From the IMG/VR virus record IMGVR_UViG_2609460346_000006, positions 1-42,345 of that record: a stretch of DNA of 42,345 nt, one strand, 5' to 3'. Position 1 is the stretch's first letter, and each line of letters begins with the position of its first letter. Positions 2,014 through 37,061 of the stretch are shown here, piece by piece. Source of the stretch: a virus (taxonomy: Duplodnaviria > Heunggongvirae > Uroviricota > Caudoviricetes). The position numbers and the translations under genes are program-made. Below the pieces are notes generated by a model, which was given only the letters and a program-made list of their open reading frames with translations, was not told the DNA's origin and made no database searches.

Positions 2014-2111
2014 CTTCCATTAATCCCTGAATTGTTGGTTAATACGCTTGAGGGTGAATGCGAATAATAGAAAAGGAGCCTGTAGCTCCCTGATGATTTT
2101 GCTTTTCATGT

Positions 2112-2334: not shown

Positions 2335-3087
2335 TCACACTTCGAATGCCAACTGAGGGGTAAAGACGTCCCGTTCAGCGTTGTAATTAAGTGAACTGGC
2401 ACTGTTGAATGATTCAATGCGTTCCACAAGAACTTGCGTACGGGTTTCTTTACTTGCGGGAGCATATGGCGAACCTACCCAGGATTTGTCGATGCCTATA
2501 TTTCTTGCGACGTTCGTGCTGTCTGCAGACGAAAGCGGTACATGAGTAAAAATGTCTTTATTTAACATCCGTAACCCATGAATCTTGGTGATTGGGTAGC
2601 CGTACTGATCTACAACATGACGTATAAGATCGCGTAGTTTAGCCCGACACGCTCTCGGTCGTTTTGCATCGTATTCCCCCATCGAGCCGATGCAGACGCG
2701 GGGAAACTCATGGCACAGACGAATAAATCGCTCATCTGGTTCGTTCATGTGCCACACCGGAGCACCAATAAATTTACCGTGAGGCCATGCCGCAATCAGG
2801 GCGTCATTCTCTTCACTGGTTCCGCCGATAACATCCGGGATAACCGCGAATGAGAAACGAGGGTGATTACCCCAGCGTTCAACAAATCTGTAATATTCAT
2901 TCCAGTCTACGGCCTTGTTTTTTGTCCAGAATGTGAATGCACCATTATCAAGAGCAAATGATTGGGTGACTTCGGAAGCCAGATCAATCTGAGCTGGATT
3001 AGCAAAACTGATGAATGCGTGTCTGCCTTTCCAGGCTTTCAACGCACAGGTATCGGGAGTTATTGGACCACCGTGAAAATGAATCAT
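2335..3087 (-). CDS. Conserved 250-aa ea-region protein; possible tRNA-guanine transglycosylase (TGT/DpdA)-superfamily enzyme (hypothesis)
   Basis: ORF coupled by ATGA overlap to upstream small ORF; motifs …LDNGAF… and …ADSTNVARN… resemble TGT substrate-Asp (DSGG[FY]) and catalytic-Asp/…RNAR… regions by eye; no search run. Confidence 0.6.
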   Translation of the reverse strand: MIHFHGGPITPDTCALKAWKGRHAFISFANPAQIDLASEVTQSFALDNGAFTFWTKNKAVDWNEYYRFVERWGNHPRFSFAVIPDVIGGTSEENDALIAAWPHGKFIGAPVWHMNEPDERFIRLCHEFPRVCIGSMGEYDAKRPRACRAKLRDLIRHVVDQYGYPITKIHGLRMLNKDIFTHVPLSSADSTNVARNIGIDKSWVGSPYAPASKETRTQVLVERIESFNSASSLNYNAERDVFTPQLAFEV

Positions 3088-3242
3088 ACACTCTCCCGTT
3101 TATTATTTATCTCCTCAGCCAGTCGCTGGGCTTTCAGCGGATTTCGGATAACAGAAGGCCCGGGAAATACCCAGCCTCGCTTTGTAACGGAGTAGACGAA
3201 AGTGATCGCACCTACCCGGATATTATCGTGAGGATGCTTCAT
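3084..3242 (-). CDS. Small hypothetical protein translationally coupled between exo and the 250-aa gene
   Basis: 52-aa ORF ([11 protein letters not shown]…) whose ATG overlaps the exo stop (ATGA) and whose stop overlaps the next ATG (ATGA); below the ORF-track size cutoff. Confidence 0.4.
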
Positions 3243-5003: not shown

Positions 5004-5078
5004 GGCTGAACTCCTGAAAATGGCTGTGAAAATATCGCCCGCGAAATGCCGGGCTGATTAGGAAAACAGGAAAGGGGA

Positions 5079-5369
5079 TTAGTGATTCAGGCCGTTGCCG
5101 CGCCCGTCGAGAAAAACTTCCACGAGCAAATCACGGGTATAAGTGCGCTCGATGCCGCGATGCAGATAAAGCCGTCCGCGTAAATTAGCTGATGCAGTCC
5201 AGGTACCATCTTTGTGTTTGACCAGCATTCCTGGCATGACCGCACCTCGATTAACGGTCTGCGTTCCGTAATGTTGATGAACCATAAAAACTCCTGCCCG
5301 TAAGCTGGGCTGCTGAACATATAGAGACTTCTGCGCGTATTCAGGCGGTGGATGGCCGCCGGTTGTCAT
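5079..5369 (-). CDS. Hypothetical protein, first gene of the leftward early (pL) transcript; function unknown
   Basis: 96 aa from ATG at 5367-5369 (GAGG 10 nt upstream); the ORF track extends to a TTG at 5489 adding an Arg-rich 40-aa N-terminus (…VKRTRERR…); lies where lambdoid phages carry N/kil/cIII but resembles none of them. Confidence 0.4.
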
Positions 5370-5562
5370 AACTAAGCCGCCTCGTTGAAACGACTGAGGT
5401 ATGAAGTGTTGAGTTGATTTCAGCTGGTCACACCGACGTTCACGCGTCCGCTTCACCCCTCGCACTTCCCGAAGCCTGCTGAAATTCAAGCTGCGGACCT
5501 AAGCGGTCATCGCAACGGTGAATCAGGTGGTTGCCGTATCGTTGTGTTGTTGCGATGAATTT

Positions 5563-5660
5563 ATTTAAAACTATAGTTGTTTTGTTGTCAACAACAAAAG
5601 TTGTTTTATTGGTTGTTTTAGATGTAACTGGTTGTATTTAGGATGGGTTTATTTTGTGAC
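5563..5660 (-). promoter_or_regulatory. Putative oL/pL: leftward early promoter with repressor operators
   Basis: On minus strand TTGACA (5586-5591), 17-bp spacer, TTAAAT (5563-5568); inverted repeat TTGTTG-TCAA-CAACAA overlaps the -35; repeated GGTTGT half-sites (5610-5640) match the half-sites in OR. Confidence 0.55.
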
Positions 5661-5766: not shown

Positions 5767-6720
5767 TTATTCGAATGGAAGATCTATTTGCCTTTGAGGA
5801 TTCAACTGTTTTTTTACATGCTCAATTTCGAATATGGTTTTTATGGCATCTCCGATCATATATTGAGTTACTTTTAAATCTACAAGTAACATATCACCTT
5901 TAGAAAAATTTAAGGTGTTGTTATCAATATCGCTGATGAATTTCTGGTCTTTTATTTCAGCCAAAAAGCTACTGGCACCATCAGAAAACCGCCACCGGCT
6001 TCCTTCATTGAAGGAAATATTTTTAATTTGAAGGGCTTTCTCTACTGTGTACTCTGAAATTATTGATTCTGCTGGTAGATTGACTTTGAAATAATGTGCT
6101 TCTTGCTTGTTGATCGTCATGAATGTCAAACCATCATCGACAGTAGAGGCAAAGCTGTCAATGCCTTCCTGCTCTAATGGCTTACTTATAACTTCTTGTA
6201 ATGAAGAGCGAAGTTTAATATTTTTATAAAGTTCAATAACGTTACTGTCGTAGATCTCGCTTTCGTCATCAACAAAGACTTCGATGTTGCTATCAGGCAA
6301 ATTGTGTAATTTTTTTATTTTCCTTGGACCTATCCATTTTATCAGTTGAATTAGGCCTTTGCATATTTTTTCTTTAGAACCAGGACAGAGTCCAATAAAA
6401 GCAATCAAATTCGCAGCGGCTGTTGCTGAATCGCCGGATAAAAAATCAACAGCCTGTTTGAACCAAGATGTAGATGAGGCAACCAGATCTATTCCAAATG
6501 AGCCAGCTTTAAATGATGCATTGACTTTTACAGAAACAACAGTCTTGTTTCCGTAGAGAGTTTTACCGGCTTCCTCTAATGCATCTGATAGTGATAGAAG
6601 GGCAGGAGCAAGGTCTCGCACGTTCATTTCATGCGTTTCCAGTGCCGGACCGTCGTATACTATCCTGAACTTCATATCATTGGTTTCCGAATTGTTGCCC
6701 GCATCCATTATGGCATTCAC
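5767..6720 (-). CDS. Unknown 317-aa protein in the rexAB slot; candidate lysogen-expressed accessory/defence gene
   Basis: Long AT-rich ORF directly downstream of and co-oriented with cI, own terminator, followed by oL/pL; no catalytic motif, TM segment or P-loop seen; start is GTG at 6720 or ATG at 6708 (AGGTGA 8 nt upstream). Confidence 0.7.
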   Translation of the reverse strand: MNAIMDAGNNSETNDMKFRIVYDGPALETHEMNVRDLAPALLSLSDALEEAGKTLYGNKTVVSVKVNASFKAGSFGIDLVASSTSWFKQAVDFLSGDSATAAANLIAFIGLCPGSKEKICKGLIQLIKWIGPRKIKKLHNLPDSNIEVFVDDESEIYDSNVIELYKNIKLRSSLQEVISKPLEQEGIDSFASTVDDGLTFMTINKQEAHYFKVNLPAESIISEYTVEKALQIKNISFNEGSRWRFSDGASSFLAEIKDQKFISDIDNNTLNFSKGDMLLVDLKVTQYMIGDAIKTIFEIEHVKKQLNPQRQIDLPFE

Positions 6721-6781: not shown

Positions 6782-7471
6782 CTACCCATGCTTCCTATAC
6801 GTCTGCGGCATGCTCCCAATAACCTTACCGAAGATGAACACCCGGTTCATCTCGTCTTTCTCGATCGGGTCCCAAGGTGAGTAGCTCTTGTTATCAGAGA
6901 TAACCAGCAGCTTATCCTTCATCATTTGCAGACGCTTTACATGGGCTGTGTCGTCGTACAGAAACGCATAGATACCATCACCGTCGAAAGATTTAACCGT
7001 GATATCAACGAACAGCAGATCACCTGGTTCGATCGTTCCTGACATGCTGTCACCGCGTACGTTAATGATACGGATATTTTCCGCCTTCCTGCCATCGAAC
7101 ATGTGACGAGCATCGTCAAACGAATACTCAACCGAACGTAGAACTTCTACAAACTCACGGTTGATGACTCCCGGCCCGGCACTCACTTCGATATCAAGAA
7201 CGTCAATCTTAAAGTATTTGGAATGGCTGACAGTTGTTTGTATTGGTTGCACTGTACTGTCTGACATATTTCCAACGCCAGAAGATAACCATTCTGCGCG
7301 CACACCCAAAGCGTTCGCGATCTCCACGATTTTAGTTGTTTGGTTAGCTTTCCCTGTTTCGATTTTCTGAATAGCTGCTTGGCTAACCCCGACCAAATCC
7401 CCAAGCGCCTTTTGTGTAAGGCCTCGCGCTAATCTGGCTTCTTTAAGTCTTTCTGAGAGTGTTGTTTTCAT
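6782..7471 (-). CDS. CI-like prophage repressor (N-terminal HTH, C-terminal S24/LexA-like peptidase)
   Basis: 229 aa from ATG 7469-7471; HTH (…LTQKALGDLVGVSQAAIQKIETGK…), Ala-Gly cleavage site (…VSAGPG…), Ser/Lys dyad (…GDSMSG…, …HVKRL…); divergent from cro across an operator region. Confidence 0.9.
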   Translation of the reverse strand: MKTTLSERLKEARLARGLTQKALGDLVGVSQAAIQKIETGKANQTTKIVEIANALGVRAEWLSSGVGNMSDSTVQPIQTTVSHSKYFKIDVLDIEVSAGPGVINREFVEVLRSVEYSFDDARHMFDGRKAENIRIINVRGDSMSGTIEPGDLLFVDITVKSFDGDGIYAFLYDDTAHVKRLQMMKDKLLVISDNKSYSPWDPIEKDEMNRVFIFGKVIGSMPQTYRKHG

Positions 7472-7575
7472 AGTCCAAATGTACAACCAAGGTTTTATTT
7501 CATCAAACGAAAATGGTTGTTGACTAAAAACAACCATGGTTTTAATCTTGATTCAAATTAACCACGGAGGTTGTT
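7472..7575. promoter_or_regulatory. OR region: divergent pRM/pR with three TGGTTGT-type operator sites
   Basis: Sites at ~7482-7492, 7514-7524, 7529-7540; candidate pR -35 TTGACT (7520-7525) with -10 near 7541-7548; GGAGG RBS before cro ATG. Confidence 0.6.
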
Positions 7576-7806
7576 ATGAACCCAGCCATCAAAACAGCGA
7601 TCAATATCGTTGGTTCACAAAAGAAACTAGGCGCTGCCTGCGAAGTTTCACAGCAGGCCGTCTATAAGTGGCTTCACAACAAAGCAAAGGTATCCCCTGA
7701 ACATGTCGGCAGCATTGTTACGGCTACTGGTGGAGTAGTGAAGGCATACCAGATTCGCCCGGATCTTCCGAAGTTGTTTCCACACACTGAAAAGAACGCA
7801 GCTTAA
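7576..7806 (+). CDS. Cro-like HTH regulator (YdaS-like)
   Basis: 76 aa, first rightward gene divergent from cI, strong RBS, HTH-like segment (…KKLGAACEVSQQAVYKWL…). Confidence 0.75.
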   Translation: MNPAIKTAINIVGSQKKLGAACEVSQQAVYKWLHNKAKVSPEHVGSIVTATGGVVKAYQIRPDLPKLFPHTEKNAA

Positions 7807-7875
7807 ATTTCCATTTCACGCTCTTTAACAATAAGCAATCAACTTAACAGTCAATTCAAACTAAAGGAGTCAATT

Positions 7876-8501: not shown

Positions 8502-9431
8502 ATGGCAAACACTGCTGAGATATTCAATTTTCCAGTGCCGGATGCGGCACAAAAGGAGCCGCGCGTGGCAGATCTCGATGATGGTTATACGCGCATTGCA
8601 AATGAGTTGCTGGAAGCTGTGATGCTGGCCGGATTAACACAGCACCAGCTTCTGGTCTTTCTGGCTGTCATGCGCAAAACATATGGCTTTAATAAAAAAC
8701 TGGATTGGGTTAGCAACGAGCAACTTTCCGAATTAACCGGGATATTGCCGCACAAGTGTTCTGCTGCAAAAAGTGTTCTGGTAAAGCGTGGGATTTTTAT
8801 TCAGAGCGGGCGGAATACCGGCATTAATAATGTGGTCAGTGAATGGTCTACATTACCCGAATCAGGTAAGAAAAATAAAGTTTACCTGAAAGAGGTAAAT
8901 TTACCTGAATCAGGTAAAAAAAGTTTACCCAAATCAGGTAAAGGCGTTTACCCGAATCAGGTAAACACAAAAGACAAACTAACAAAAGACAATATAAAAC
9001 CTTTTTCGTCCGAGAATTCTGGCGAATCCTCTGACCAACCAGAAAACGATCTTCCTGTGGTGAAACCGGATGCTGCAATTCAGAGCGGCAGCAAGTGGGG
9101 GACAGCAGAAGACCTGACCGCCGCAGAGTGGATGTTTGACATGGTGAAGACCATCGCGCCATCAGCCAGAAAACCGAATTTTGCAGGGTGGGCTAACGAT
9201 ATCCGCCTGATGCGTGAACGTGACGGACGTAACCACCGCGACATGTGCGTGCTGTTCCGCTGGGCATGCCAGGACAACTTCTGGTCCGGTAACGTGCTAA
9301 GTCCGGCCAAACTCCGCGACAAGTGGACCCAACTCGAAATCAACCGTAACAAGCAACAGGCAGGCGTGACAGCTAGCAAACCAAAACTCGACCTGACAAA
9401 CACAGACTGGATTTACGGGGTGGATCTATGA
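8502..9431 (+). CDS. O: Replication initiator O (lambda O family, lambda-type C-terminus)
   Basis: Start at internal ATG 8502 after GGGAGG; N-domain resembles lambda O (…VADLDDGY…LAVMRKTYG…SQLSE…); C-terminus ends …TDWIYGVDL like lambda O; contains iterons. Confidence 0.85.
   Translation: MANTAEIFNFPVPDAAQKEPRVADLDDGYTRIANELLEAVMLAGLTQHQLLVFLAVMRKTYGFNKKLDWVSNEQLSELTGILPHKCSAAKSVLVKRGIFIQSGRNTGINNVVSEWSTLPESGKKNKVYLKEVNLPESGKKSLPKSGKGVYPNQVNTKDKLTKDNIKPFSSENSGESSDQPENDLPVVKPDAAIQSGSKWGTAEDLTAAEWMFDMVKTIAPSARKPNFAGWANDIRLMRERDGRNHRDMCVLFRWACQDNFWSGNVLSPAKLRDKWTQLEINRNKQQAGVTASKPKLDLTNTDWIYGVDL
8852..8964. repeat. Replication origin iterons inside O (5 copies of ~TTTACCYRAATCAGGTAAA) followed by an AT-rich stretch
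   Basis: Directly visible repeats at ~8852-8869, 8881-8899, 8900-8918, 8924-8942, 8946-8964; AT-rich 8965-9000; matches lambda ori architecture with a different iteron sequence. Confidence 0.8.
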
Positions 9432-10428: not shown

Positions 10429-10495
10429 TGAAACAGGTGAGTTGAGTTCAAACTGTAGTACAATTCTCTCCAGTTTGAACAGGAAAGAATATGCT

Positions 10496-10828
10496 ATGAA
10501 TCCTTATATTTATCTTGGTGGTGCAATACTTGCAGAGGTCATTGGTACAACCTTAATGAAGTTTTCAGAAGGTTTTACACGGTTATGGCCATCTGTTGGT
10601 ACAATTATTTGTTATTGTGCATCATTCTGGTTATTAGCTCAGACGCTGGCTTATATTCCTACAGGGATTGCTTATGCTATCTGGTCAGGAGTCGGTATTG
10701 TCCTGATTAGCTTACTATCATGGGGATTTTTCGGCCAACGGTTGGACCTGCCAGCCATTATAGGCATGATGTTGATTTGTGCCGGTGTGTTGGTTATTAA
10801 TTTATTGTCACGAAGCACACCACATTAA
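10496..10828 (+). CDS. emrE: EmrE small multidrug resistance (SMR) efflux transporter
   Basis: 110 aa from internal ATG; matches E. coli EmrE (MNPYIYLGGAILAEVIGTTLMKFSEGFTRLWPSVGTIICYCASFWLLAQTLAYIPTGIAYAIWSGVGIVLISLLSW…). Confidence 0.95.
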   Translation: MNPYIYLGGAILAEVIGTTLMKFSEGFTRLWPSVGTIICYCASFWLLAQTLAYIPTGIAYAIWSGVGIVLISLLSWGFFGQRLDLPAIIGMMLICAGVLVINLLSRSTPH

Positions 10829-11083
10829 AAATAATTTGTTTTTAAACGACTAAAATATGGAGGCTCGTATATTTATATGGGCCTCGTTTTATGCTTTTTG
10901 TTAATGTCTTTAGTTTTTATTCATTCTTTTGTGCTTTCAAGATTATGGTGTAAGAAAATTGCAATGCGATTATTGTTGTATATTCAAAATAATGTGACCT
11001 TAATTGTCTTTTTAAATAAAAATTAAACAAAAATCATATCTCACCACTAAGGTTTATAAAAGCATACTTTAGCAGGTGTCACC

Positions 11084-12610
11084 ATGAAAAAAGCCATAGC
11101 ATATATGCGATTTTCATCACCAGGTCAGATGTCTGGTGATTCATTAAACCGCCAGAGAAGGCTTATTACTGAATGGCTAAAGGTAAATAGTGATTATTAC
11201 CTTGATACCGTAACGTATGAAGATTTGGGGTTAAGCGCATTCAATGGAAAGCATGCACAATCAGGAGCTTTTTCGGAATTTTTAGATGCTATAGAACATG
11301 GTTATATATTGCCAGGGACTACATTGTTAGTTGAAAGTCTGGACAGACTTTCAAGAGAAAAAGTCGGTGAAGCGATTGAGCGTCTGAAATTGATTTTGAA
11401 TCACGGTATTGATGTTATAACTCTTTGCGATAATACAGTCTATAATATTGACTCATTGAATGAGCCATATTCATTAATAAAAGCCATACTTATAGCACAA
11501 AGGGCAAATGAAGAAAGCGAGATAAAGTCAAGTCGGGTTAAATTATCATGGAAGAAAAAACGGCAGGATGCACTGGAGTCAGGCACGATTATGACGGCTT
11601 CTTGTCCGAGATGGCTCTCATTGGATGACAAAAGAACGGCTTTTGTTCCAGACCCCGACAGGGTGAAAACTATTGAGCTAATTTTTAAACTCAGGATGGA
11701 AAGGCGCTCATTGAATGCAATAGCCAAGTATTTAAATGATCATGCTGTAAAGAATTTCTCAGGAAAAGAAAGTGCATGGGGACCTTCTGTAATTGAAAAA
11801 TTATTAGCGAATAAAGCTCTGATAGGTATATGCGTACCTTCATATCGTGCAAGAGGGAAAGGGATAAGTGAAATCGCTGGCTATTATCCCAGAGTCATAT
11901 CAGATGATTTGTTTTACGCTGTACAGGAAATTCGGTTGGCACCTTTTGGTATTAGCAATAGTAGCAAGAATCCTATGCTAATAAATCTACTTCGAACAGT
12001 TATGAAGTGTGAGGCTTGTGGTAATACCATGATTGTTCATGCGGTATCTGGAAGTTTGCATGGCTATTATGTTTGTCCGATGAGAAGATTACATCGATGT
12101 GACAGACCATCAATAAAAAGAGATTTGGTTGATTATAATATCATTAATGAATTGCTTTTTAATTGTAGCAAAATTCAACCAGTTGAAAACAAGAAAGATG
12201 CTAATGAAACTTTAGAGTTAAAAATTATTGAGCTTCAGATGAAAATTAATAATTTAATCGTTGCATTGTCTGTCGCGCCTGAAGTTACCGCTATAGCAGA
12301 GAAAATAAGACTATTAGATAAGGAATTACGAAGGGCTTCGGTATCATTAAAAACTTTGAAGAGTAAAGGGGTGAGTTCACTTGGTGATTTTCATGCTATT
12401 GATTTAACCAGTAAAAATGGGCGAGAGCTATGTCGTACACTTGCCTATAAAATATTCGAAAAAATTATAATTAATACAGATAATAAAACCTGTGATATCT
12501 ATTTTATGAATGGCATTGTTTTTAAACACTATCCTTTAATGAAAGTAATATCCGCCCAGCAGGCGATAAGTACTCTTAAATATATGGTTGATGGTGAGAT
12601 TTATTTTTGA
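11084..12610 (+). CDS. ybcK: Large serine recombinase (YbcK-like)
   Basis: 508 aa; N-terminal resolvase-type catalytic domain (…AIAYMRFSSPGQ… with catalytic Ser, …LLVESLDRLSR…), Cys-rich zinc-ribbon region and coiled-coil C-terminus; AT-rich. Confidence 0.8.
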   Translation: MKKAIAYMRFSSPGQMSGDSLNRQRRLITEWLKVNSDYYLDTVTYEDLGLSAFNGKHAQSGAFSEFLDAIEHGYILPGTTLLVESLDRLSREKVGEAIERLKLILNHGIDVITLCDNTVYNIDSLNEPYSLIKAILIAQRANEESEIKSSRVKLSWKKKRQDALESGTIMTASCPRWLSLDDKRTAFVPDPDRVKTIELIFKLRMERRSLNAIAKYLNDHAVKNFSGKESAWGPSVIEKLLANKALIGICVPSYRARGKGISEIAGYYPRVISDDLFYAVQEIRLAPFGISNSSKNPMLINLLRTVMKCEACGNTMIVHAVSGSLHGYYVCPMRRLHRCDRPSIKRDLVDYNIINELLFNCSKIQPVENKKDANETLELKIIELQMKINNLIVALSVAPEVTAIAEKIRLLDKELRRASVSLKTLKSKGVSSLGDFHAIDLTSKNGRELCRTLAYKIFEKIIINTDNKTCDIYFMNGIVFKHYPLMKVISAQQAISTLKYMVDGEIYF

Positions 12611-12934
12611 GTAATAATCACTTTTTCAACCGTGCTATGGTATGAAAGTAAAGTGACTAATATGATATTAACTATCTTGAACGAAGCGCCCTGAGCTATA
12701 GTTTTACTATAGGCACTGCCACTGGATGTTGGCATTCTTGCTCTAGTAGCTCAACAATACCCAATCACAAAACAATTCACTGATAACAAACTTTGTGCAC
12801 GTGCTTGGTTATGGCGAACAGGTGATGTTAACCTCTTGCCTGAATGCCACTCCACTTCATTAAGTATCTGAGCACCGAGAGGCTGGTCACGCCCCCATTA
12901 AAAATAATTTCTTTTGAATCGAGTGAAATAGGTT

Positions 12935-12961
12935 AGCCCGCATAAGTGCGGGCTGCTTTTT
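12935..12961 (+). terminator. Rho-independent terminator (possibly bidirectional) between ybcK-like and the esterase gene
   Basis: Hairpin AGCCCGCA-TAAG-TGCGGGCT followed by GCTTTTT; abuts the esterase stop codon. Confidence 0.6.
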
Positions 12962-14003
12962 ACAGGTCAGCGTTTGTTTTTTGTTGTTGGGTAGCGGTTT
13001 TTATGGGGGTTCCCAGGTTTTTAGTAAACCACTCAACAACTCTGTTTATAATAATTGGCTGATACCATGTATTATCGCCATGCTCAGCCCCTTCTACCAG
13101 AACGTACTCAGCGTTATCGCCGTTCTTCTTCAACATCCTGAATAGTTTGGCGCTTTGCTCAGGTGAAACCAGAGTGTCTTTGCTACCATGCATAATAAGA
13201 AATGGGGGTTTTACTCCTTTCATATGTCCGATTGGACTGGCGTTTAGCGCTTTTTCTTTTGACGCTGTTATGGGGGCTCCCGCAAAACTTCTGAATGCAG
13301 GGCCATTGATCATTAAGGCTTCGGTTACGGCAGGAGATCGATGAACCTCCTGCACTGATTCAGGGAACCCCTCGCCAATATTCAACAAGTCAGAAATCCC
13401 ATAAAGTGTGGCAACTGCCTGAACATCTGCTGATTGCTGAAGAAAGTCACCTTTATTAAAGGTTTTGTCACCATTTGTAGTTCCCATCATCTGGGCAAGC
13501 CATCCACCGGCAGAGTCACCCAGAACTCCGATTCTTTGAGGATCAATCCCATAATCGCTGGCATGTTCTCTCAAGTAACGTATTGCAGCTTTCCCATCCT
13601 CAACTGGTGCTGGAAATGTATCAGGAATTGTTCTGTATTCTACAGCGGCCACAACAAAACCAGCTTCAGCCAGAGCCATTCTCATTTCAATAAATTTGTC
13701 ATGTTCAGAAGACATGAATCCGCCGCCGGGATAATAAATAATGGCTGGTCTTAAATCATTTGTTCGCGGGACAAGAACTGACATGTGAAGCTGTCTGACA
13801 GAACGAGTTCCTTTTATCTGGGAATAAACAACATCACCAATGAGATCGACCTGGTTTCTGGTGGGTGAAACACTAATGATATCTGCACCCGGGGTGTAAC
13901 CAGGAAGATTAGTCTGGACAGGTGTTGCACAACTCCCGACCGACATGGCCATTGACATACCATACAATAGTGTTGCAGATGATAATATCTTGTTAATTTT
14001 CAT
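12960..14003 (-). CDS. Secreted alpha/beta-hydrolase esterase/lipase, probable lipoprotein
   Basis: 347 aa; signal peptide with lipobox-like …SVGSC…; HGGG-like …YYPGGGF… and nucleophile elbow …GDSAGG… of the alpha/beta hydrolase fold. Confidence 0.8.
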   Translation of the reverse strand: MKINKILSSATLLYGMSMAMSVGSCATPVQTNLPGYTPGADIISVSPTRNQVDLIGDVVYSQIKGTRSVRQLHMSVLVPRTNDLRPAIIYYPGGGFMSSEHDKFIEMRMALAEAGFVVAAVEYRTIPDTFPAPVEDGKAAIRYLREHASDYGIDPQRIGVLGDSAGGWLAQMMGTTNGDKTFNKGDFLQQSADVQAVATLYGISDLLNIGEGFPESVQEVHRSPAVTEALMINGPAFRSFAGAPITASKEKALNASPIGHMKGVKPPFLIMHGSKDTLVSPEQSAKLFRMLKKNGDNAEYVLVEGAEHGDNTWYQPIIINRVVEWFTKNLGTPIKTATQQQKTNADL

Positions 14004-14352
14004 GTTTTACATGCCTTGACTTATCGGATGAAATTCTCTTACTGAATTTAACGGCAGTTTAATAGCAGTACAACTCGTGGTAGCTAGGGAAATATCCCAG
14101 TCGTGGTTAAGGTTGTACTTGACGGCTATTATTTCAACAATGCTTAAAGTGAGAGCTTAAGGTTATGCGTATGTTTTACAGTCCGAGTAGATTCTGACCA
14201 ATAGCTTCTTTGTATAATTCTGTCAGAAATAAATCTTGGCTTGCATGAAGTTTGAGACCTTATCTTGTTTGATTATGAATAATCAATTCGCCATAATTGT
14301 ATCACCGGAGCCTGAACAACTCCTGTGACTTCTGCGCTAAACGGGGACGTTT

Positions 14353-14454
14353 ATGCGCACATACAATCCAACCTATCTTCTCCATTCACAGATGCAGAAA
14401 TGCACCTGCGATTTTTTGCATCCAGCGTTTGGCCTCTGCGGAGGTGAATCGTGA
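14353..14454 (+). CDS. Small ORF upstream of ybcN (YlcH-like, 33 aa)
   Basis: ATG 14353 with upstream GGGGA; stop TGA overlaps the ybcN GTG start; below ORF-track cutoff. Confidence 0.35.
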
Positions 14455-14906
14455 ACCTCCCACAAGATGGCATCAAATTGCATCGCGGCAACTTCACCGC
14501 TTTCGGCCAGCAGATCCAGCCTTATCTGGAGGACGGAAAATGCTTTCGCATGGTGCTTAAACCGTGGCGTGAGAAACGCAGTCTTTCCCAGAATGCACTC
14601 AGCCATATGTGGTACAGCGAAATCAGTGAATACCTCATCAGCAGGGGGAAATCGTTCGCTACCGCAGCATGGGTAAAAGATGCTCTCAAACACACATACC
14701 TCGGTTATGAAACCAAGGACCTGGTTGATGTCGTAACCGGCGAAATCACTACTATCCAGTCGTTACGCCATACCTCCGATCTTGATACCGGAGAGATGTA
14801 TGTCTTCCTGTGTAAGGTTGAAGCCTGGGCGATGAATATTGGCTGCCACCTGACTATTCCGCAGCGCTGCGAGTTCCAGCTGCTGCGCGACAAGCAGGAG
14901 GCGTAA
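14451..14906 (+). CDS. ybcN: YbcN / NinB-family protein
   Basis: 151 aa, GTG start after GGAGG; matches the DLP12 YbcN sequence as recalled (…[20 protein letters not shown]…). Confidence 0.8.
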
Positions 14907-15076
14907 TGGCTACACCGCTTATTCGTATCATGAACGGACACATCTACAAAGTACCAAATCGTCGTAAGCGTAAACCTGAGCTGAAGCCATCCGAAATACC
15001 AACACTGCTCGGGTATACCGCCAGCCTGGTTGATAAAAAATGGTTGCGACTGGCAGCAAGGAGGAATCATGGCTGA
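14906..15076 (+). CDS. ninE: NinE
   Basis: 56-aa ORF ([56 protein letters not shown]) found by manual translation; ATG overlaps ybcN stop. Confidence 0.7.
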   Translation: MATPLIRIMNGHIYKVPNRRKRKPELKPSEIPTLLGYTASLVDKKWLRLAARRNHG

Positions 15077-15359
15077 TTTGAGAAAAGCAGCGCGTGGTCG
15101 GGAATGCCAGGTAAGAATCCCTGGCGTATGTAATGGCAATCCTGAAACGTCAGTACTGGCACATATCCGGCTGGCTGGATTGTGCGGTACCGGTATCAAA
15201 CCGCCAGACCTGATTGCCACCATTGCATGTTCTGCCTGCCACGACGAAATCGACCGTCGCACGCATTTTGTTGACGCTGGATATGCAAAAGAATGCGCGC
15301 TGGAAGGTATGGCGAGAACACAGGTTATCTGGTTGAAAGAGGGGGTTATTGAGGCGTGA
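15069..15359 (+). CDS. ybcO: YbcO-like protein (DUF1364, putative nuclease)
   Basis: 96 aa from internal ATG 15069 after AGGAGG; Cys/His-rich (…[11 protein letters not shown]…CSACHDEID…); DLP12 gene order. Confidence 0.75.
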
Positions 15360-15718
15360 ATACCTACAGCATCACATTACCTTGGCCTCCGAGCAATAAT
15401 CGCTATTACCGCCATAATCGTGGGCGCACGCACGTCAGCGCAGAGGGGCAGGCATACTGCGATAACGTCGCCCGAATCATTAAAAACGCAATGCTGGATA
15501 TCGGCTTGGCTATGCCAGTGAAAATCCGTATTGAGTGCCACATGCCGGATCGCCGTCGCCGTGACCTGGATAATCTGCAAAAAGCCGCTTTTGACGCACT
15601 CACCAAAGCAGGTTTCTGGCTGGATGATATTCAGGTCGTTGATTACCGTGTTGTGAAGATGCCCGTTACCAAAGGTGGGAAGCTGGAGCTGACCATCACC
15701 GAACTGGGAGATGAATGA
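15356..15718 (+). CDS. rusA: RusA Holliday-junction resolvase
   Basis: 120 aa matching E. coli RusA ([34 protein letters not shown]…). Confidence 0.95.
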
Positions 15719-15855
15719 TGTTTGAGTCTTATATGGCAGAGCGTCTTCGCCGCCGCTGGGTGCGCCTGCGCTTATATCGTTTTCCTGGTTCTGTTTTGAC
15801 CGATTACCGAATACTGAAGAATTACGCCAAAACCCTGACAGGAGCAGGAGTATGA
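15715..15855 (+). CDS. ylcG: YlcG-like small protein
   Basis: 46-aa ORF ([46 protein letters not shown]) overlapping the rusA stop; found by manual translation. Confidence 0.6.
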
Positions 15856-15940
15856 AGTCAGAGATAACAATCAACTAATACTGTTTTGTTGATTTTTGCT
15901 TGTAATTGGCGTTCTGGTCTGATTTTTGTGGAGTAAGTTG

Positions 15941-16324
15941 ATGCGTGATATTCAGATGGTTCTTGAGCGTTGGGGAGCGTGGGCGGCTAATAATCATGAA
16001 GATGTGACCTGGTCGTCCGTTGCCGCCGGTTTTAAGGGATTAATTCCTTCAAAAGTAAAATCTCGCCCGCAATGTTGTGACGATGACGCGATGATCATTT
16101 GCGGGTGCATGGCCCGTCTGAAAAAGAACAACAGCGATTTACACGATTTATTAGTAGATTATTATGTATGTGGTATGACATTCATGTCACTGGCAAGTAA
16201 GCATTGCTGCTCGGATGGTTATATCGGGAAAAGGTTACAGAAGGCTGAGGGCATAATTGAAGGGATGTTAATGGCATTAGATATCCGGTTAGATATGGAT
16301 ATCGTTGCTAATAATTCTAATTGA
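15941..16324 (+). CDS. quuD: Late-gene antiterminator Q (QuuD / phage 82 Q type)
   Basis: 127 aa from ATG 15941 (GGAG upstream); Cys-rich zinc-binding region (…[16 protein letters not shown]…); position after rusA/ylcG. Confidence 0.85.
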
Positions 16325-30917: not shown

Positions 30918-32267
30918 ATGGCTACGTGGCAACAGGGTATTAATTCTGGTGGTTTTCTGGCTGGAATTGGTGCGCAAAATGAGAATGCGCCAAAGGCAAG
31001 CGACATTAACGCAACGCTTGGTCTGATCCGCGAAAACAATGAACTGGCTCGATCAGGTGCAAATAACGTTGGTCTGACCGCGTTACGTGGTCTGGCTGGA
31101 GTTGCTGATATTTATAAGCAGGAACAGCAACAGAAAGCGATTAATGCGTTCAATAAGGTTCATGCTGATGCATGGGCTTCTGGTGATCCATCGGGACTAT
31201 TTAAGTTTGCCCAGGAAAATCCAGCGTTTGTTGCACAGGCACAACAGGCGTTTTCCGGTCTTAATGAGCAGCAACGCAACGATATGGGCGATTTAGCCAT
31301 GAGGGCTAACGTCGCTCTTTCCCAGGGACCGGAAGCCTACAGTAAATTCATTACTGACAACAAGGACAGGTTAAATCGCGTTGGTGCTAATGCTGACTGG
31401 ATGATTCAGACAGGTATCCAGAATCCAGAGCAGCTATCACACATGCTGACTACTATGTCTCTCGGTGCACTTGGGCCAGAAAAGGCGTTTGCTGTTCAGG
31501 ATAAGATGGTTGGTCGCCAGCAGGAGCAGCAAAGAATTAACGAAACCATTCGCAATAATGACATGACGAATGCGAGGGCTATTAGGGGGCAGGATCTTTC
31601 CTATAAGGCTCAAATGGCAAGACTGAATCACGACAAGTATGTGTTTAAGCAGTCACAGGCGGCCCTTGAAAGAGCAGGACAACTTCAGGATATGGATGTT
31701 TTGTCTCTTAACTCACAGATAGCAGCGACGGGAATTGATCCGCTAACCGGTAAAGCTGCAACGTCAGCCAGAATGTCTCAGGCTAAGAGATGGCTTGATG
31801 GCAACAATAATTACAACAATGCGTTGATTACTGGTGAGCGAGGGATAGAGAAAATAGATTCTTTGCTTGGTAAGAAGGAGCTTGAAGGTATCGGTCGCTT
31901 CGAAGGAAGAAATATAGATGGCTTCACAAGTGCTGAAGGGCTTGCAAACCGTAATGCGATAGAAGAATTAAAGTCGGGTGCGTTTGTCCAGAACGTGCAG
32001 ACTATGCGAGGTATGGGTAGCCTCTCCAATGCTGAAGGACAAAAACTGGAAAACCTTATCGCGAAACTCGATATAACACAGCCTGAAGAGGTCGTCAGAA
32101 AACAGTTATCTGAAATCCGATCGCAATATTCTGTATTTCAAAAGGTTGCAGCAAGGGAGGCTGAATCAATGGGATATAGTTCATCAGGTTATGACACATA
32201 TGTTAGTGAGCGAAAATCAGGAAGCGACAGCAATAAGTCCGGTTTCTCGTCTTTATGGGGTGATTAA
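30918..32267 (+). CDS. Ejection protein (P22 gp20-like)
   Basis: 449 aa, synteny and composition consistent with gp20. Confidence 0.7.
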
Positions 32268-34435
32268 TGGCTAAAGCATGGAAAGATGTTATCGCTTCTC
32301 CACAGTATCAGGCGTTAACTGAAGAACAGAAAGCACAGGCTCAAGCGCAATATTTTGATGAGGTTGTTGCCCCTAAGGCTGGTGACAAATGGGCTGAAGC
32401 AAGAGATCAGTTTTATGCAGCATACCCTCCACCTCAGCAGCAGAAAGAAGAACCATCATTGATGCAACAAGCTGGTGATTGGCTCACAGGTGGTCAAAGT
32501 GCAGGGCAAATTGCAGAACAGGCTGGTCGTGGTCTGGTAAACATACCATTTGACGTATTGCAGGGTGGCGCAAGTCTGATTAATGCAATCAGCCAGGGGC
32601 TTGGTGGCCCAAAGGTTTTGGATGATGTCTATCGTCCAGTCGATCGACCGACAGACCCTTATGCGCAAGCCGGTGAAACAATTGGTGGGTATCTCCTGCC
32701 AATTGGCACAGCGGCAAAAGCTGCTGGAGCGCCAGCAAAGCTCGCTGGAGATATCGGTTCCGCAGGAAACATGATTGCAGGTTCTCTTGCTGATGCTGCA
32801 AATCAGGAGGGCGACTTTGCACAAAATGCTGCCATTAACGGTGGTATCAATATTGGTGCTCAGGGGATACTTTCTGGGGCTGGAAGGATCTTAACCTCTA
32901 AATCACCTCAAGTTCTTGGTGGCGGGGCAATAAATTCCGCTGCTGATGTTTCGAAAATGGCAAAGTCTGGTACAGGAAGAGAGATTATTGCCAGACAGTC
33001 AGCTAATGTGTCAGACGAAATAGCAAAAGCAGCAGATACTGCTGGAATAGATATCAACGCATTAACTCCTGGCATGAGATCAGGTAGTCGTGGTCTTGCT
33101 CAGGCGGAGGGGATTCTGGCGTCAAAGCCCGGAATTACACAGGATGCACACACCAAAGCATTCAGTGAAATAGAGTCGAAATTTAACTCAGCATTGGATG
33201 AGTTTGGGGCTGAAGCAGGAACTGCATCAGAAAAAAGTGCAGCCATAAAACAAAGGGTTTTGGCAAGTATTGATAAAATGAAAAATTCAGAAAAGGCTGC
33301 ATGGGATAGCGTCCGCTCCACGATGCCTGACGCAAAGGCCAGAATGTCAAACCTGAATGCTACAATTCAGGGTGATATTTTGGCTGGCATGCCGCTAACT
33401 CCTGAGATGAAACAATTCGCATCTGCTTATGCTAAAACTGGTAAAAAAGGAATCACGTTTGATGCCATGAAGGCATGGCGAAGTAAACTTGCTGACGCAG
33501 AGCAGAAGTATATAAGGTCTGGTGAGGCAAATACGGCAAGGCGCATGGCGGAGCTTCGTGATGCAGCAACGGAAGATATGCGCATAATGGCTCAAAATGG
33601 CGGTTTTCTTGATGACTGGCAAAAAGCTAATGATCTGTCAAAGGCAAGATTTACAGCACAAGAACAGGCTGAAGCAGCGTTTGGTAGAGACCTTGCAACT
33701 GATCAGTTGGTAACTAATGGATCTAAGGCGTTACAGGGTTCAGCAAAAAGTGGAACAGGTCAGTTCCATAAAATAATAAGCGCCCTACCTGAGTCGGAAC
33801 GCGCGCCAGCAATTGCATCAATATTACAAGATGCAATGTCGCAAGGGGTACGCGGAGGTAAGTCTGAAGAGGCTGGAATTAAGCATATCGCGACTATTCT
33901 TACCCCACAAAACGTGAAGGCAATTAGTCGATATTCTCCAGAACTTGGCAGGATTACAAGTTCATACGGAGAACTTGCACGAGCAGCAACAAAGCCACTT
34001 CGATATATTGAACAGACAGGGCGATCTATGCCAGCCATTAGCACTCTTGAGAATGGCCTTCATCCAGTTTTAGAGAGCGCATTGTCTGGCGCTTTTAGAA
34101 CTACTGGCACTATCGCAGGGTTCTCTGGAGGAGGCGTTATTGGAGCAATAGCGGGTGGCGCTGCAGGTGGGGCAATTGATGCAATGGCAAAAGGAGCGAT
34201 AGCGAAATTATCCGCAACTAGAAGCGGTCGTTACGCTATTGAAAAGGCTGTTCAAGAGGCAACAAAGGCAGTTAAGGTTGGGGCAAGTGATGGTGCATTA
34301 GCGGCGGCGGAACGCAGATTTATGGCAAATAAGGCCGCCGTAAAAGCAATACGCGAGGCACTAGGAAACGAAGAGTTCCAGCGTTTAGCAAGAGCTGGAA
34401 TTGTGGCATCGCTAAGCGGAATGGCACAGGAGTAA
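32267..34435 (+). CDS. Ejection protein (P22 gp16-like), extended
   Basis: 722 aa, last gene of the ejection cassette, Ala/Gly-rich; assignment by synteny. Confidence 0.65.
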
Positions 34436-36798: not shown

Positions 36799-36998
36799 GT
36801 AAAGAATGTTGTTTCTGCGGCATTAGCGAATCAGACGCTGATCAAACATACATTTACTCTAAAGAAACAGGTCGGATGCTGTGTAGTGACTGCGTGTTGG
36901 ACATCATAAGATACAAGCATCTTGGATGTTCTGCCAGCATTAGCAATATAGGTGAAGTATATGAAGGGAAAGATATAACTGATAGAGCAGAAAGTTGA
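36795..36998 (+). CDS. Small zinc-ribbon protein between arc-like and ant
   Basis: 67 aa, ATG overlapping the arc-like stop; CxxC…CxxC (…CCFCG…CSDCV…). Confidence 0.5.
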   Translation: MSKECCFCGISESDADQTYIYSKETGRMLCSDCVLDIIRYKHLGCSASISNIGEVYEGKDITDRAES

Positions 36999-37061
36999 AG
37001 CCCCAACTGCGGTAACAGTCAGGGCTTCGGTATCGTAAAACCACGCATAGGAATTAACGAC

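Follow-up and report, generated by a model that had tools for sequence, protein, structure and literature searches.

A leftward early region of a lambdoid prophage with a predicted kil as its first gene and a conserved leader in the place of N

In lambda and phi80, the early-left operon runs from its operators and promoter (oL/pL) through nutL, N and tL1 to kil, gam, bet and exo, and in lambda the terminator-like sites of this operon are passed with the help of N. HK022 and HK639 are likewise lambdoid but N-less, and carry a structured RNA, put, at or near +1 of the pL transcript in the left operon. Here we describe the leftward early region (positions 5,079 to 5,660) of the virus record IMGVR_UViG_2609460346_000006, whose 42,345 nucleotides we refer to as the window and which is a complete lambdoid, lambda-like prophage of Escherichia coli. 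As in lambda and phi80, operators lie over a sigma-70 promoter, and the first gene stands behind a long 5′ leader; gam, bet and exo are nearly identical to their lambda counterparts, hairpins included, and the leader module of kil is homologous to that of phi80 and HK225. Unlike in lambda and phi80, there is no boxA or boxB of a nutL site, no N and no tL1, and about 150 nt of unrelated non-coding leader are found instead. The account that we favour, with moderate confidence, is that of an early-left region whose first gene is kil, and in which transcription from pL proceeds directly into kil-gam-bet-exo without N.

The region is the leftward early promoter/operator (pL/oL) of the prophage. The promoter pL (5556..5591, minus strand) consists of the -35 element TTGACA (5591-5586), a 17-nt spacer and the -10 element TTAAAT (5568-5563), with a probable start at the A at 5556; it was omitted by our consensus promoter scan because TTAAAT fails the rule that demands an A at position 2. 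The operator region oL (5563..5641, no strand assigned) holds three AAAACAAC-type copies, on the minus strand at 5576-5583, 5600-5607 and 5612-5619, together with the inverted repeat TTGTTG-TCAA-CAACAA at 5582-5597 and the half-site GGTTGT at 5611-5616 and 5630-5635. The promoter and repeats that an earlier note on this DNA had pointed out are all present in the sequence, and its assignment of pL/oL is confirmed. The assignment is sound because several further observations agree with it: pL and pR align over about 30 bp that include the operator (GTTGTTGAC(A/T)A.AAAACAAC.AT.GTTTTAA), the operator TTAAAACTATAGTTGTTTT (5565-5583) has a counterpart, AAAACAACCATGGTTTTAA (7527-7545), at the same position in pR, and AAAACAAC occurs 11 times against 2.8 expected, five of these copies lying in oL or oR. 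The region thus has what defines a lambdoid pL/oL: a sigma-70 promoter overlapped by repeated operators that recur at pR, next to a CI-type repressor gene.

In a scan of IMG/VR and a comparison that took in 58 distinct leader sequences, the leader is joined to at least five unrelated promoter-operator (immunity) modules. In types A, B, D and E, whose promoters are unrelated, homology begins exactly at ATCGCAAC (A-TCGCAAC), or ATCACAAC in one of them, 7 nt past the -10 element, while type C becomes homologous only from about +45 (TTCACCGTTGCGATGACC). The module boundaries shared across the immunity types therefore place +1 at about 5556. The 10-bp inverted repeat remarked on in the earlier note is real, with TCATCGCAAC at 5558-5549 facing GTTGCGATGA at 5516-5507, and eight of its pairs fall within the transcript. 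Here they form a 5′-terminal stem-loop, SL-I (5509..5556, minus strand), in which AUCGCAAC at +1 (5556-5549) pairs with GUUGCGAU (5516-5509). Since all five immunity types can pair their own 5′ end with the common GUUGCGAU, with loops of differing sequence, we regard the inverted repeat as a conserved 5′-terminal stem.

The first gene behind pL is predicted from its sequence to be kil, encoding a 68-amino-acid relative of Rac KilR and phi80 Kil. It lies on the minus strand at 5079..5285 (68 codons and a stop), with its ATG at 5285 and a strong Shine-Dalgarno sequence, AGGAG (5295-5291), 5 nt upstream. The earlier note had read a protein of 96 amino acids here, or of 136 from a TTG, and had recognised no kil in the region. 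In PHROGs, only residues 60-136 of this long open reading frame match, and they match the Kil family (phrog_294, E = 2.5e-38). Rac KilR aligns at 36% identity (E = 1e-11), its Met1 falling on Met69 of the long frame, and phi80 Kil at 41% (E = 5e-16); the likeness to both extends over the full length, and to size (68-73 amino acids) and position in the pL operon before the recombination genes. The NCBIfam profile NF008465 (“FtsZ inhibitor protein”) covers residues 69-136, and the Prokaryotic Genome Annotation Pipeline (PGAP)/RefSeq entry WP_000233576.1, of 207 nt, is named “phage encoded cell division inhibitor protein”. The start at Met69 is common to KilR, the NCBIfam profile and PGAP, so that both longer readings give way to one of 68 amino acids from the ATG at 5285, and the supposed lack of a kil gives way with them. 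The curated cut-off of NF008465, which stands for the KilR subfamily, is not reached (63.1 against 92 bits), and the protein is related to this narrow subfamily without belonging to it. An alignment of five Kil proteins has 16 invariant columns, and the gene lies in the early-left operon ahead of gam, bet and exo, as a kil should. The 47-amino-acid lambda Kil gave no alignment by BLASTP at E up to 100 and only E = 2.1 by tblastn, and the predicted Kil is unrelated to it. By family, the protein would be an FtsZ inhibitor with no relation to antitermination. The earlier note had held that its view would fall if profiles identified a known early protein unrelated to antitermination and a canonical N turned up elsewhere: the former was found, in Kil, and the latter was not.

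The other absences claimed for this region stand. Profiles (Pfam, PHROGs) on the early open reading frames found no N, Nun, cIII or lambda-type Kil, and tblastn of the whole window with lambda N, phi80 N, HK022 Nun, lambda CIII and lambda Kil gave only matches with E > 0.5, so that neither N nor cIII lies behind pL or elsewhere in the window. A scan of all open reading frames for arginine-rich (Arg-rich) stretches returned, within the early regions, only a frame in the leader, discussed below, and a frame of 46 amino acids just upstream of Q (15715-15855, plus strand), between rusA and Q; no translated protein with an N-terminal Arg-rich motif was found among them.

What stands in the slot of N can be seen by comparison with relatives. 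The segment 5405-5344 is homologous to phi80 and HK225, and has homologues in 18 further kil loci of Citrobacter, Enterobacter, Lelliottia, Leclercia, Siccibacter and other genera. Of the 20 relatives, 18 have this segment directly behind an intrinsic terminator, which in phi80 is tL1A after N and elsewhere comes after various cargo genes. In the family of the window, homology starts exactly where the T-run of the relatives ends, and the upstream gene (N in phi80) and its terminator have their place taken by the non-coding leader of about 150 nt. A consensus scan of the minus strand from 5556 to 5286 found no terminator-like site. Since the terminator of the relatives is absent upstream of the kil leader, kil-gam-bet-exo should need no antiterminator. 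The absence of N is real and common, and it is most simply accounted for by loss of the terminator that relatives carry upstream of the kil leader; the question of early antitermination may be less of a puzzle than was first stated. In eight of the loci from other genera, the cargo genes upstream of the terminators share a sequence before their start, translated as ...RVTTEGKAM, which points to gene cassettes that are flanked by terminators and have a ribosome-binding leader in common.

The untranslated leader amounts to about 270 nt in total, and its non-coding core (5406..5520, minus strand) holds a second stem-loop, SL-II (5497-5468), Box 1 (CGCAGCTTGAATTTC, 5495-5481), the Arg-rich pseudo-reading frame and Box 2 (AATCAACTCAACA, 5419-5407). 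The leader is 100% identical to that of E. coli KC-Dl-1. At 90% identity or more, 2210 of 5426 complete E. coli genomes (41%) contain the core, which is annotated in none of them, and the leader is found in 16 deposited phage genomes; on these counts the N-less arrangement is common. Nucleotide diversity in the core (pi = 0.028) is about half that at third codon positions of kil (0.059), and the core is therefore probably functional. A search ahead of kil in 35 loci of other genera did not recover it, and no Rfam family matched in the region at gathering or E-value thresholds. The folding energy of the leader is ordinary (z = -0.6 and -0.1), and in the consensus structure of the core all changes are one-sided, in an alignment of low diversity. 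We also considered that the leader could be a decayed N leader and rejected this: local alignments with lambda, phi80 and HK639 were not significant (p = 0.17, 0.95 and 0.07, respectively), the best nhmmer match in lambda, just 3′ of nutL, had E = 1.7, and shared k-mers were at chance level.

Between the core and kil lies a module of two hairpins, H1 and H2, that we aligned in 21 sequences from many genera. H1 (5372..5398, minus strand) has a lower stem that covaries and a conserved top (UUC-AAC-GAG), which buries the Shine-Dalgarno sequence GAGG of a mini open reading frame (mini-ORF). In the alignment 94.6% of cells are paired and 7 of the 11 pairs have changed on both sides; the covariation score is 0.404, compared with 0.148 in shuffles (none of 500 reached 0.404) and at most 0.09 when the partners were slid. 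The second part of the module (5344..5369, minus strand) comprises the AUG of the mini-ORF (5369-5367; MTTGGHPPP...) and H2, GGCGG-CCAUCCA-CCGCC (5360-5344), and the nucleotides of both are near-invariant. Most of the sequences open with MTTGGHPPP... at this AUG; in 6 of the 21, indels of 2 and 5 nt shift the frame of the mini-ORF while the nucleotides of H2 stay, and H2 is therefore at least partly an element at the RNA level. The mini-ORF of phi80 has 21 codons and stops before the next gene, and by inspection HK225 has the same frame and stop. In the lineage of the window, unlike in Rac and phi80, the mini-ORF continues in frame into kil; hence the 96-amino-acid reading.

The H1/H2 module is widespread in the early-left operons of enterobacterial prophages, after intrinsic terminators, and matches no Rfam family. 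A covariance model of the module (R2) also matches HK639, in which a part of the module carries the annotation of a terminator, as well as lambda (16.6 bits) and HK022 (19.7 bits), in which short forms bearing a U-tract lie upstream of cIII. These cIII-upstream hairpins share with the window the flank CAUAC(C), the top UUCAC.CGAG and the following GUUAUG; they have a U-tract and no H2, whereas the window has H2 and the mini-ORF and no U-tract. In lambda, tL2a lies between ral and ea10 (bioRxiv 10.1101/2024.10.31.621285), and the lambda copy of H1 may belong to the tL2 terminator cluster. In the window, H1 does not have the form of an intrinsic terminator: its tail, UAGUUAUG, contains no U-tract, and the terminator scan did not list it.

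From the kil stop onward the sequence is almost identical to lambda, with one difference just past the stop and before a kil-gam hairpin (5037..5054, minus strand) that is itself identical to that of lambda. This stretch lies within lambda 31088-33241, the Red fragment of pKD46, and since that fragment is well expressed, the kil-gam hairpin is not taken to be a strong terminator. We dropped an identification of this hairpin as tL3, which on the basis of the pKD46 fragment lies after exo. Just after exo, in a region near-identical to lambda, a tL3-like hairpin with a U-rich tail is found (3150..3177, minus strand); compared with lambda it has two substitutions, which add a bulge and shorten the U-run, and the lambda copy would be tL3 itself. 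Farther on, before the DksA-like gene, xis and int, comes a site resembling an intrinsic terminator (2064..2091, minus strand), with a stem of eight pairs followed by a U-rich run.

These features can be put together as follows. Upon inactivation of CI, RNA polymerase would read from pL straight into kil-gam-bet-exo, as an immediate-early and N-independent event. The 5′-terminal stem SL-I would stabilise the message, and H1, by burying the Shine-Dalgarno sequence of the mini-ORF, could act with H2 to govern entry into the kil block, as a module of a translational or attenuator-like kind. The genes past the tL3-like site and the 2091 terminator, xis and int, might be reached by leak-through, from other promoters or with help from the conserved leader; only genes beyond these two sites might need an antiterminator. 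Several observations weigh against reading the operon without any such help. The constraint on the leader core and its presence in 41% of complete genomes imply some function beyond this account. The leader sits in the slot that nutL and N occupy in phi80, and put in HK022 and HK639. The operon has kept the lambda-like hairpins after kil and after exo as well as the strong 2091 terminator, and on the pR side, in this immunity type, a perfect boxA is flanked by copies of two leader boxes, which is the signature of a nut site. The hairpins and the terminator, along with the pR-side boxes, keep a cis-acting RNA or a nut-like mechanism in play for the distal genes.

Alternatives to N-independent reading have to be weighed, and the first concerns the frame upstream of kil. 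This frame is open for 136 codons, its peptide GVKRTRERRCDQ recalls the Arg-rich motifs of N proteins, and some phage records have open reading frames of 128-139 amino acids annotated here, all of which would suit an N-like protein that starts at the TTG (or a nearby GTG) and has an Arg-rich motif fused to a downstream domain. The variants tell otherwise. In the Arg-rich part (codons 1-40), 21 of the 58 have TAG as codon 32, and insertions occur in four, of 5 nt in three and of 1 nt in one; changes are non-synonymous and synonymous in a ratio of 21:6 and spread over the three codon positions as 13, 6 and 9, with no third-position bias, whereas in kil synonymous third-position changes are far commoner. 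Neither the TTG nor the GTG has a usable Shine-Dalgarno sequence upstream, and when the Arg-rich peptide was used for tblastn (E up to 10), all matches were to this leader and none to an N gene. Met69 is the start in PGAP and in the profiles, moreover, and the C-terminal domain is Kil. Because of the stops, the frameshifts and the absent codon bias in relatives, the Arg-rich extension is untranslated leader RNA, and the earlier note's view of it as the N-terminal part of a protein has to be abandoned. An N-like Arg-rich protein fused to Kil was rejected on these grounds and for want of homologues; by the comparative data it is already refuted, and we give it next to no credence. The leader could instead act as RNA. 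We consider it unlikely that SL-I, SL-II and the core (about +1 to +150) form a new cis-acting processive antiterminator that modifies the RNA polymerase from which it emerges, an analogue of put unrelated to it in sequence. Like putL, the leader begins at +1 of the pL transcript of a phage without N, in the slot of put or N; it is more conserved than synonymous sites, is joined to five immunity types and is very common, and the hairpins downstream are near-identical to those of lambda and accompanied by a strong terminator. A precedent exists in HK639, where the annotation of an antiterminator RNA is limited to the left operon. No family in Rfam stands for put, and we built a covariance model (R1) from HK022 putL, recovered from the residue numbering in PMC9378689, HK022 putR and the annotated HK639 putL. 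This model scores its own members at 72-95 bits but, whether or not its filters were applied, gave no match with E of 10 or less within the transcribed leader (5556-5286); the nearest match, of 4.2 bits (E = 2.6), covers 5558-5596, over the promoter. The leader contains none of the conserved put blocks (GAACGGC, GUCGG and GGCG..CAGGA.GA..CAAU), and an identity with the put RNA of HK022 and HK639 was rejected accordingly. A match of 13.3 bits inside gene O (8533-8602, plus strand), which also lacks the conserved blocks, was judged to be due to chance. A putative antiterminator RNA of another kind must further contend with the unexceptional folding energy, a sequence diversity too low to show covariation and a search of other genera that yielded no homologue. 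If true, such a leader would explain read-through of the terminators of the pL operon in the very common N-less lambdoid prophages of E. coli (41% of complete genomes).

A related possibility is that Box 1, Box 2 and a boxA make up nut-like sites on both early transcripts, serving the host Nus complex alone or together with a phage protein. The spacer between cro and cII contains a copy of the leader boxes (7797..7849, plus strand), with Box 1 at 7797-7811, CGCTCTTTAACAA at 7819-7831 and Box 2 at 7837-7849, so that the two boxes flank CGCTCTTTAACAA in the same order as in the pL leader. CGCTCTTTAACAA is a perfect match to the boxA consensus. In 2000 shuffles, a 15-mer with at most one mismatch arose once and a 13-mer with at most one mismatch 14 times, and the two matches that connect the pL leader with the cro-cII spacer, a 15-mer and a 13-mer, are collinear and far beyond chance. 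A phage protein for such sites could be encoded at a distance, as N-like proteins can be located away from pL, for example in mEp021 (PMC11893012). Against this, the copy on the pR side is confined to the immunity type of the window, and phages of the Perceval type, which have the same leader, hold no similar sequence in 4.4 kb of the pR operon. A boxA followed by a boxB hairpin was not found on both early transcripts: as in rrn operons and the nut sites of lambda, a boxA site for Nus factors is seen in the cro-cII spacer, but the pL leader has none, the sister immunity types go without it, and no hairpin is common to the two copies, the common boxes being predicted to be unstructured on the pR side. 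The only Arg-rich candidates for the protein are the untranslated leader frame and the 46-amino-acid frame upstream of Q, and we regard nut-like sites on both transcripts as quite unlikely. It is also conceivable, by analogy with lambda PreS, which ends at tL2a, that the pL leader is ended or processed at H1 to give a stable trans-acting small RNA (sRNA) of about 180 nt. Terminators of the early-left operon of lambda yield an Hfq-bound sRNA (bioRxiv 10.1101/2024.10.31.621285), H1 has a terminator-like short form in lambda and HK022, and in the Rac prophage of K-12 an annotated sRNA, KilS (7406-7503 of our locus L003), ends at a terminator about 175 nt upstream of kilR, although it has no evident similarity to the leader. 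With no U-tract after H1 in the window and no match in Rfam, this we hold to be very unlikely.

The remaining layout of the prophage is that expected of a lambdoid genome. On the minus strand the genes run int, xis, DksA-like, Tgt-like, an orf60a homologue, exo, bet, gam and then the kil open reading frame; the Tgt-like protein of 250 amino acids (2335-3087, minus strand) resembles queuine tRNA-ribosyltransferase (phrog_887). To the right of kil and still on the minus strand follow a terminator, a cargo gene of 317 amino acids and the gene of the CI-type repressor (6782..7537), which matches profiles for a helix-turn-helix domain and an S24 peptidase and for which PGAP chooses a later start (690 nt). 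The cargo gene (5767-6720, minus strand) occupies the rex position between cI and oL and matches the PADLOC candidate defence protein PDC-S42 (E = 3e-86) as well as the NCBIfam LAPAL_fam; in PhiR47_2 this position is occupied by GevT/GevA, and in sister phages by other cargo. Beyond the repressor, the plus strand carries a YdaS-type cro, a YdaT-type cII, O, P, ren, a DLP12-like nin region and Q. The nin region, which spans 10442-10885 and 11084-16324, contains a QacE/EmrE-like gene followed by a terminator-like hairpin of 11 pairs (10860-10885), then a large serine recombinase, next an esterase on the opposite strand, and then NinB, HNH, RusA and Q (15926-16324). A sar RNA is found at 36993-37060 on the minus strand (Rfam RF00262, 85.7 bits). 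If this sar corresponds to the antisense RNA from the immI/ant region of P22, the prophage carries a P22-type immI beside a lambda/Rac-like immC region.

What is new here is a conserved and unannotated leader core in the slot of N, together with a covarying H1/H2 module. For annotation the region is a trap, as several deposited phage genomes call a “Kil” of 128-139 amino acids that includes untranslated leader. The leader core and H1/H2 are candidate elements for the control of elongation, message stability or the translation of kil, and because Kil is toxic, control of the leader bears on prophage induction and on filamentation of the host. An early-left operon that has neither N nor put is among the commonest lambdoid arrangements in E. 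coli, and with an N-less operon so common, the textbook N-dependent timing would not apply to these phages.

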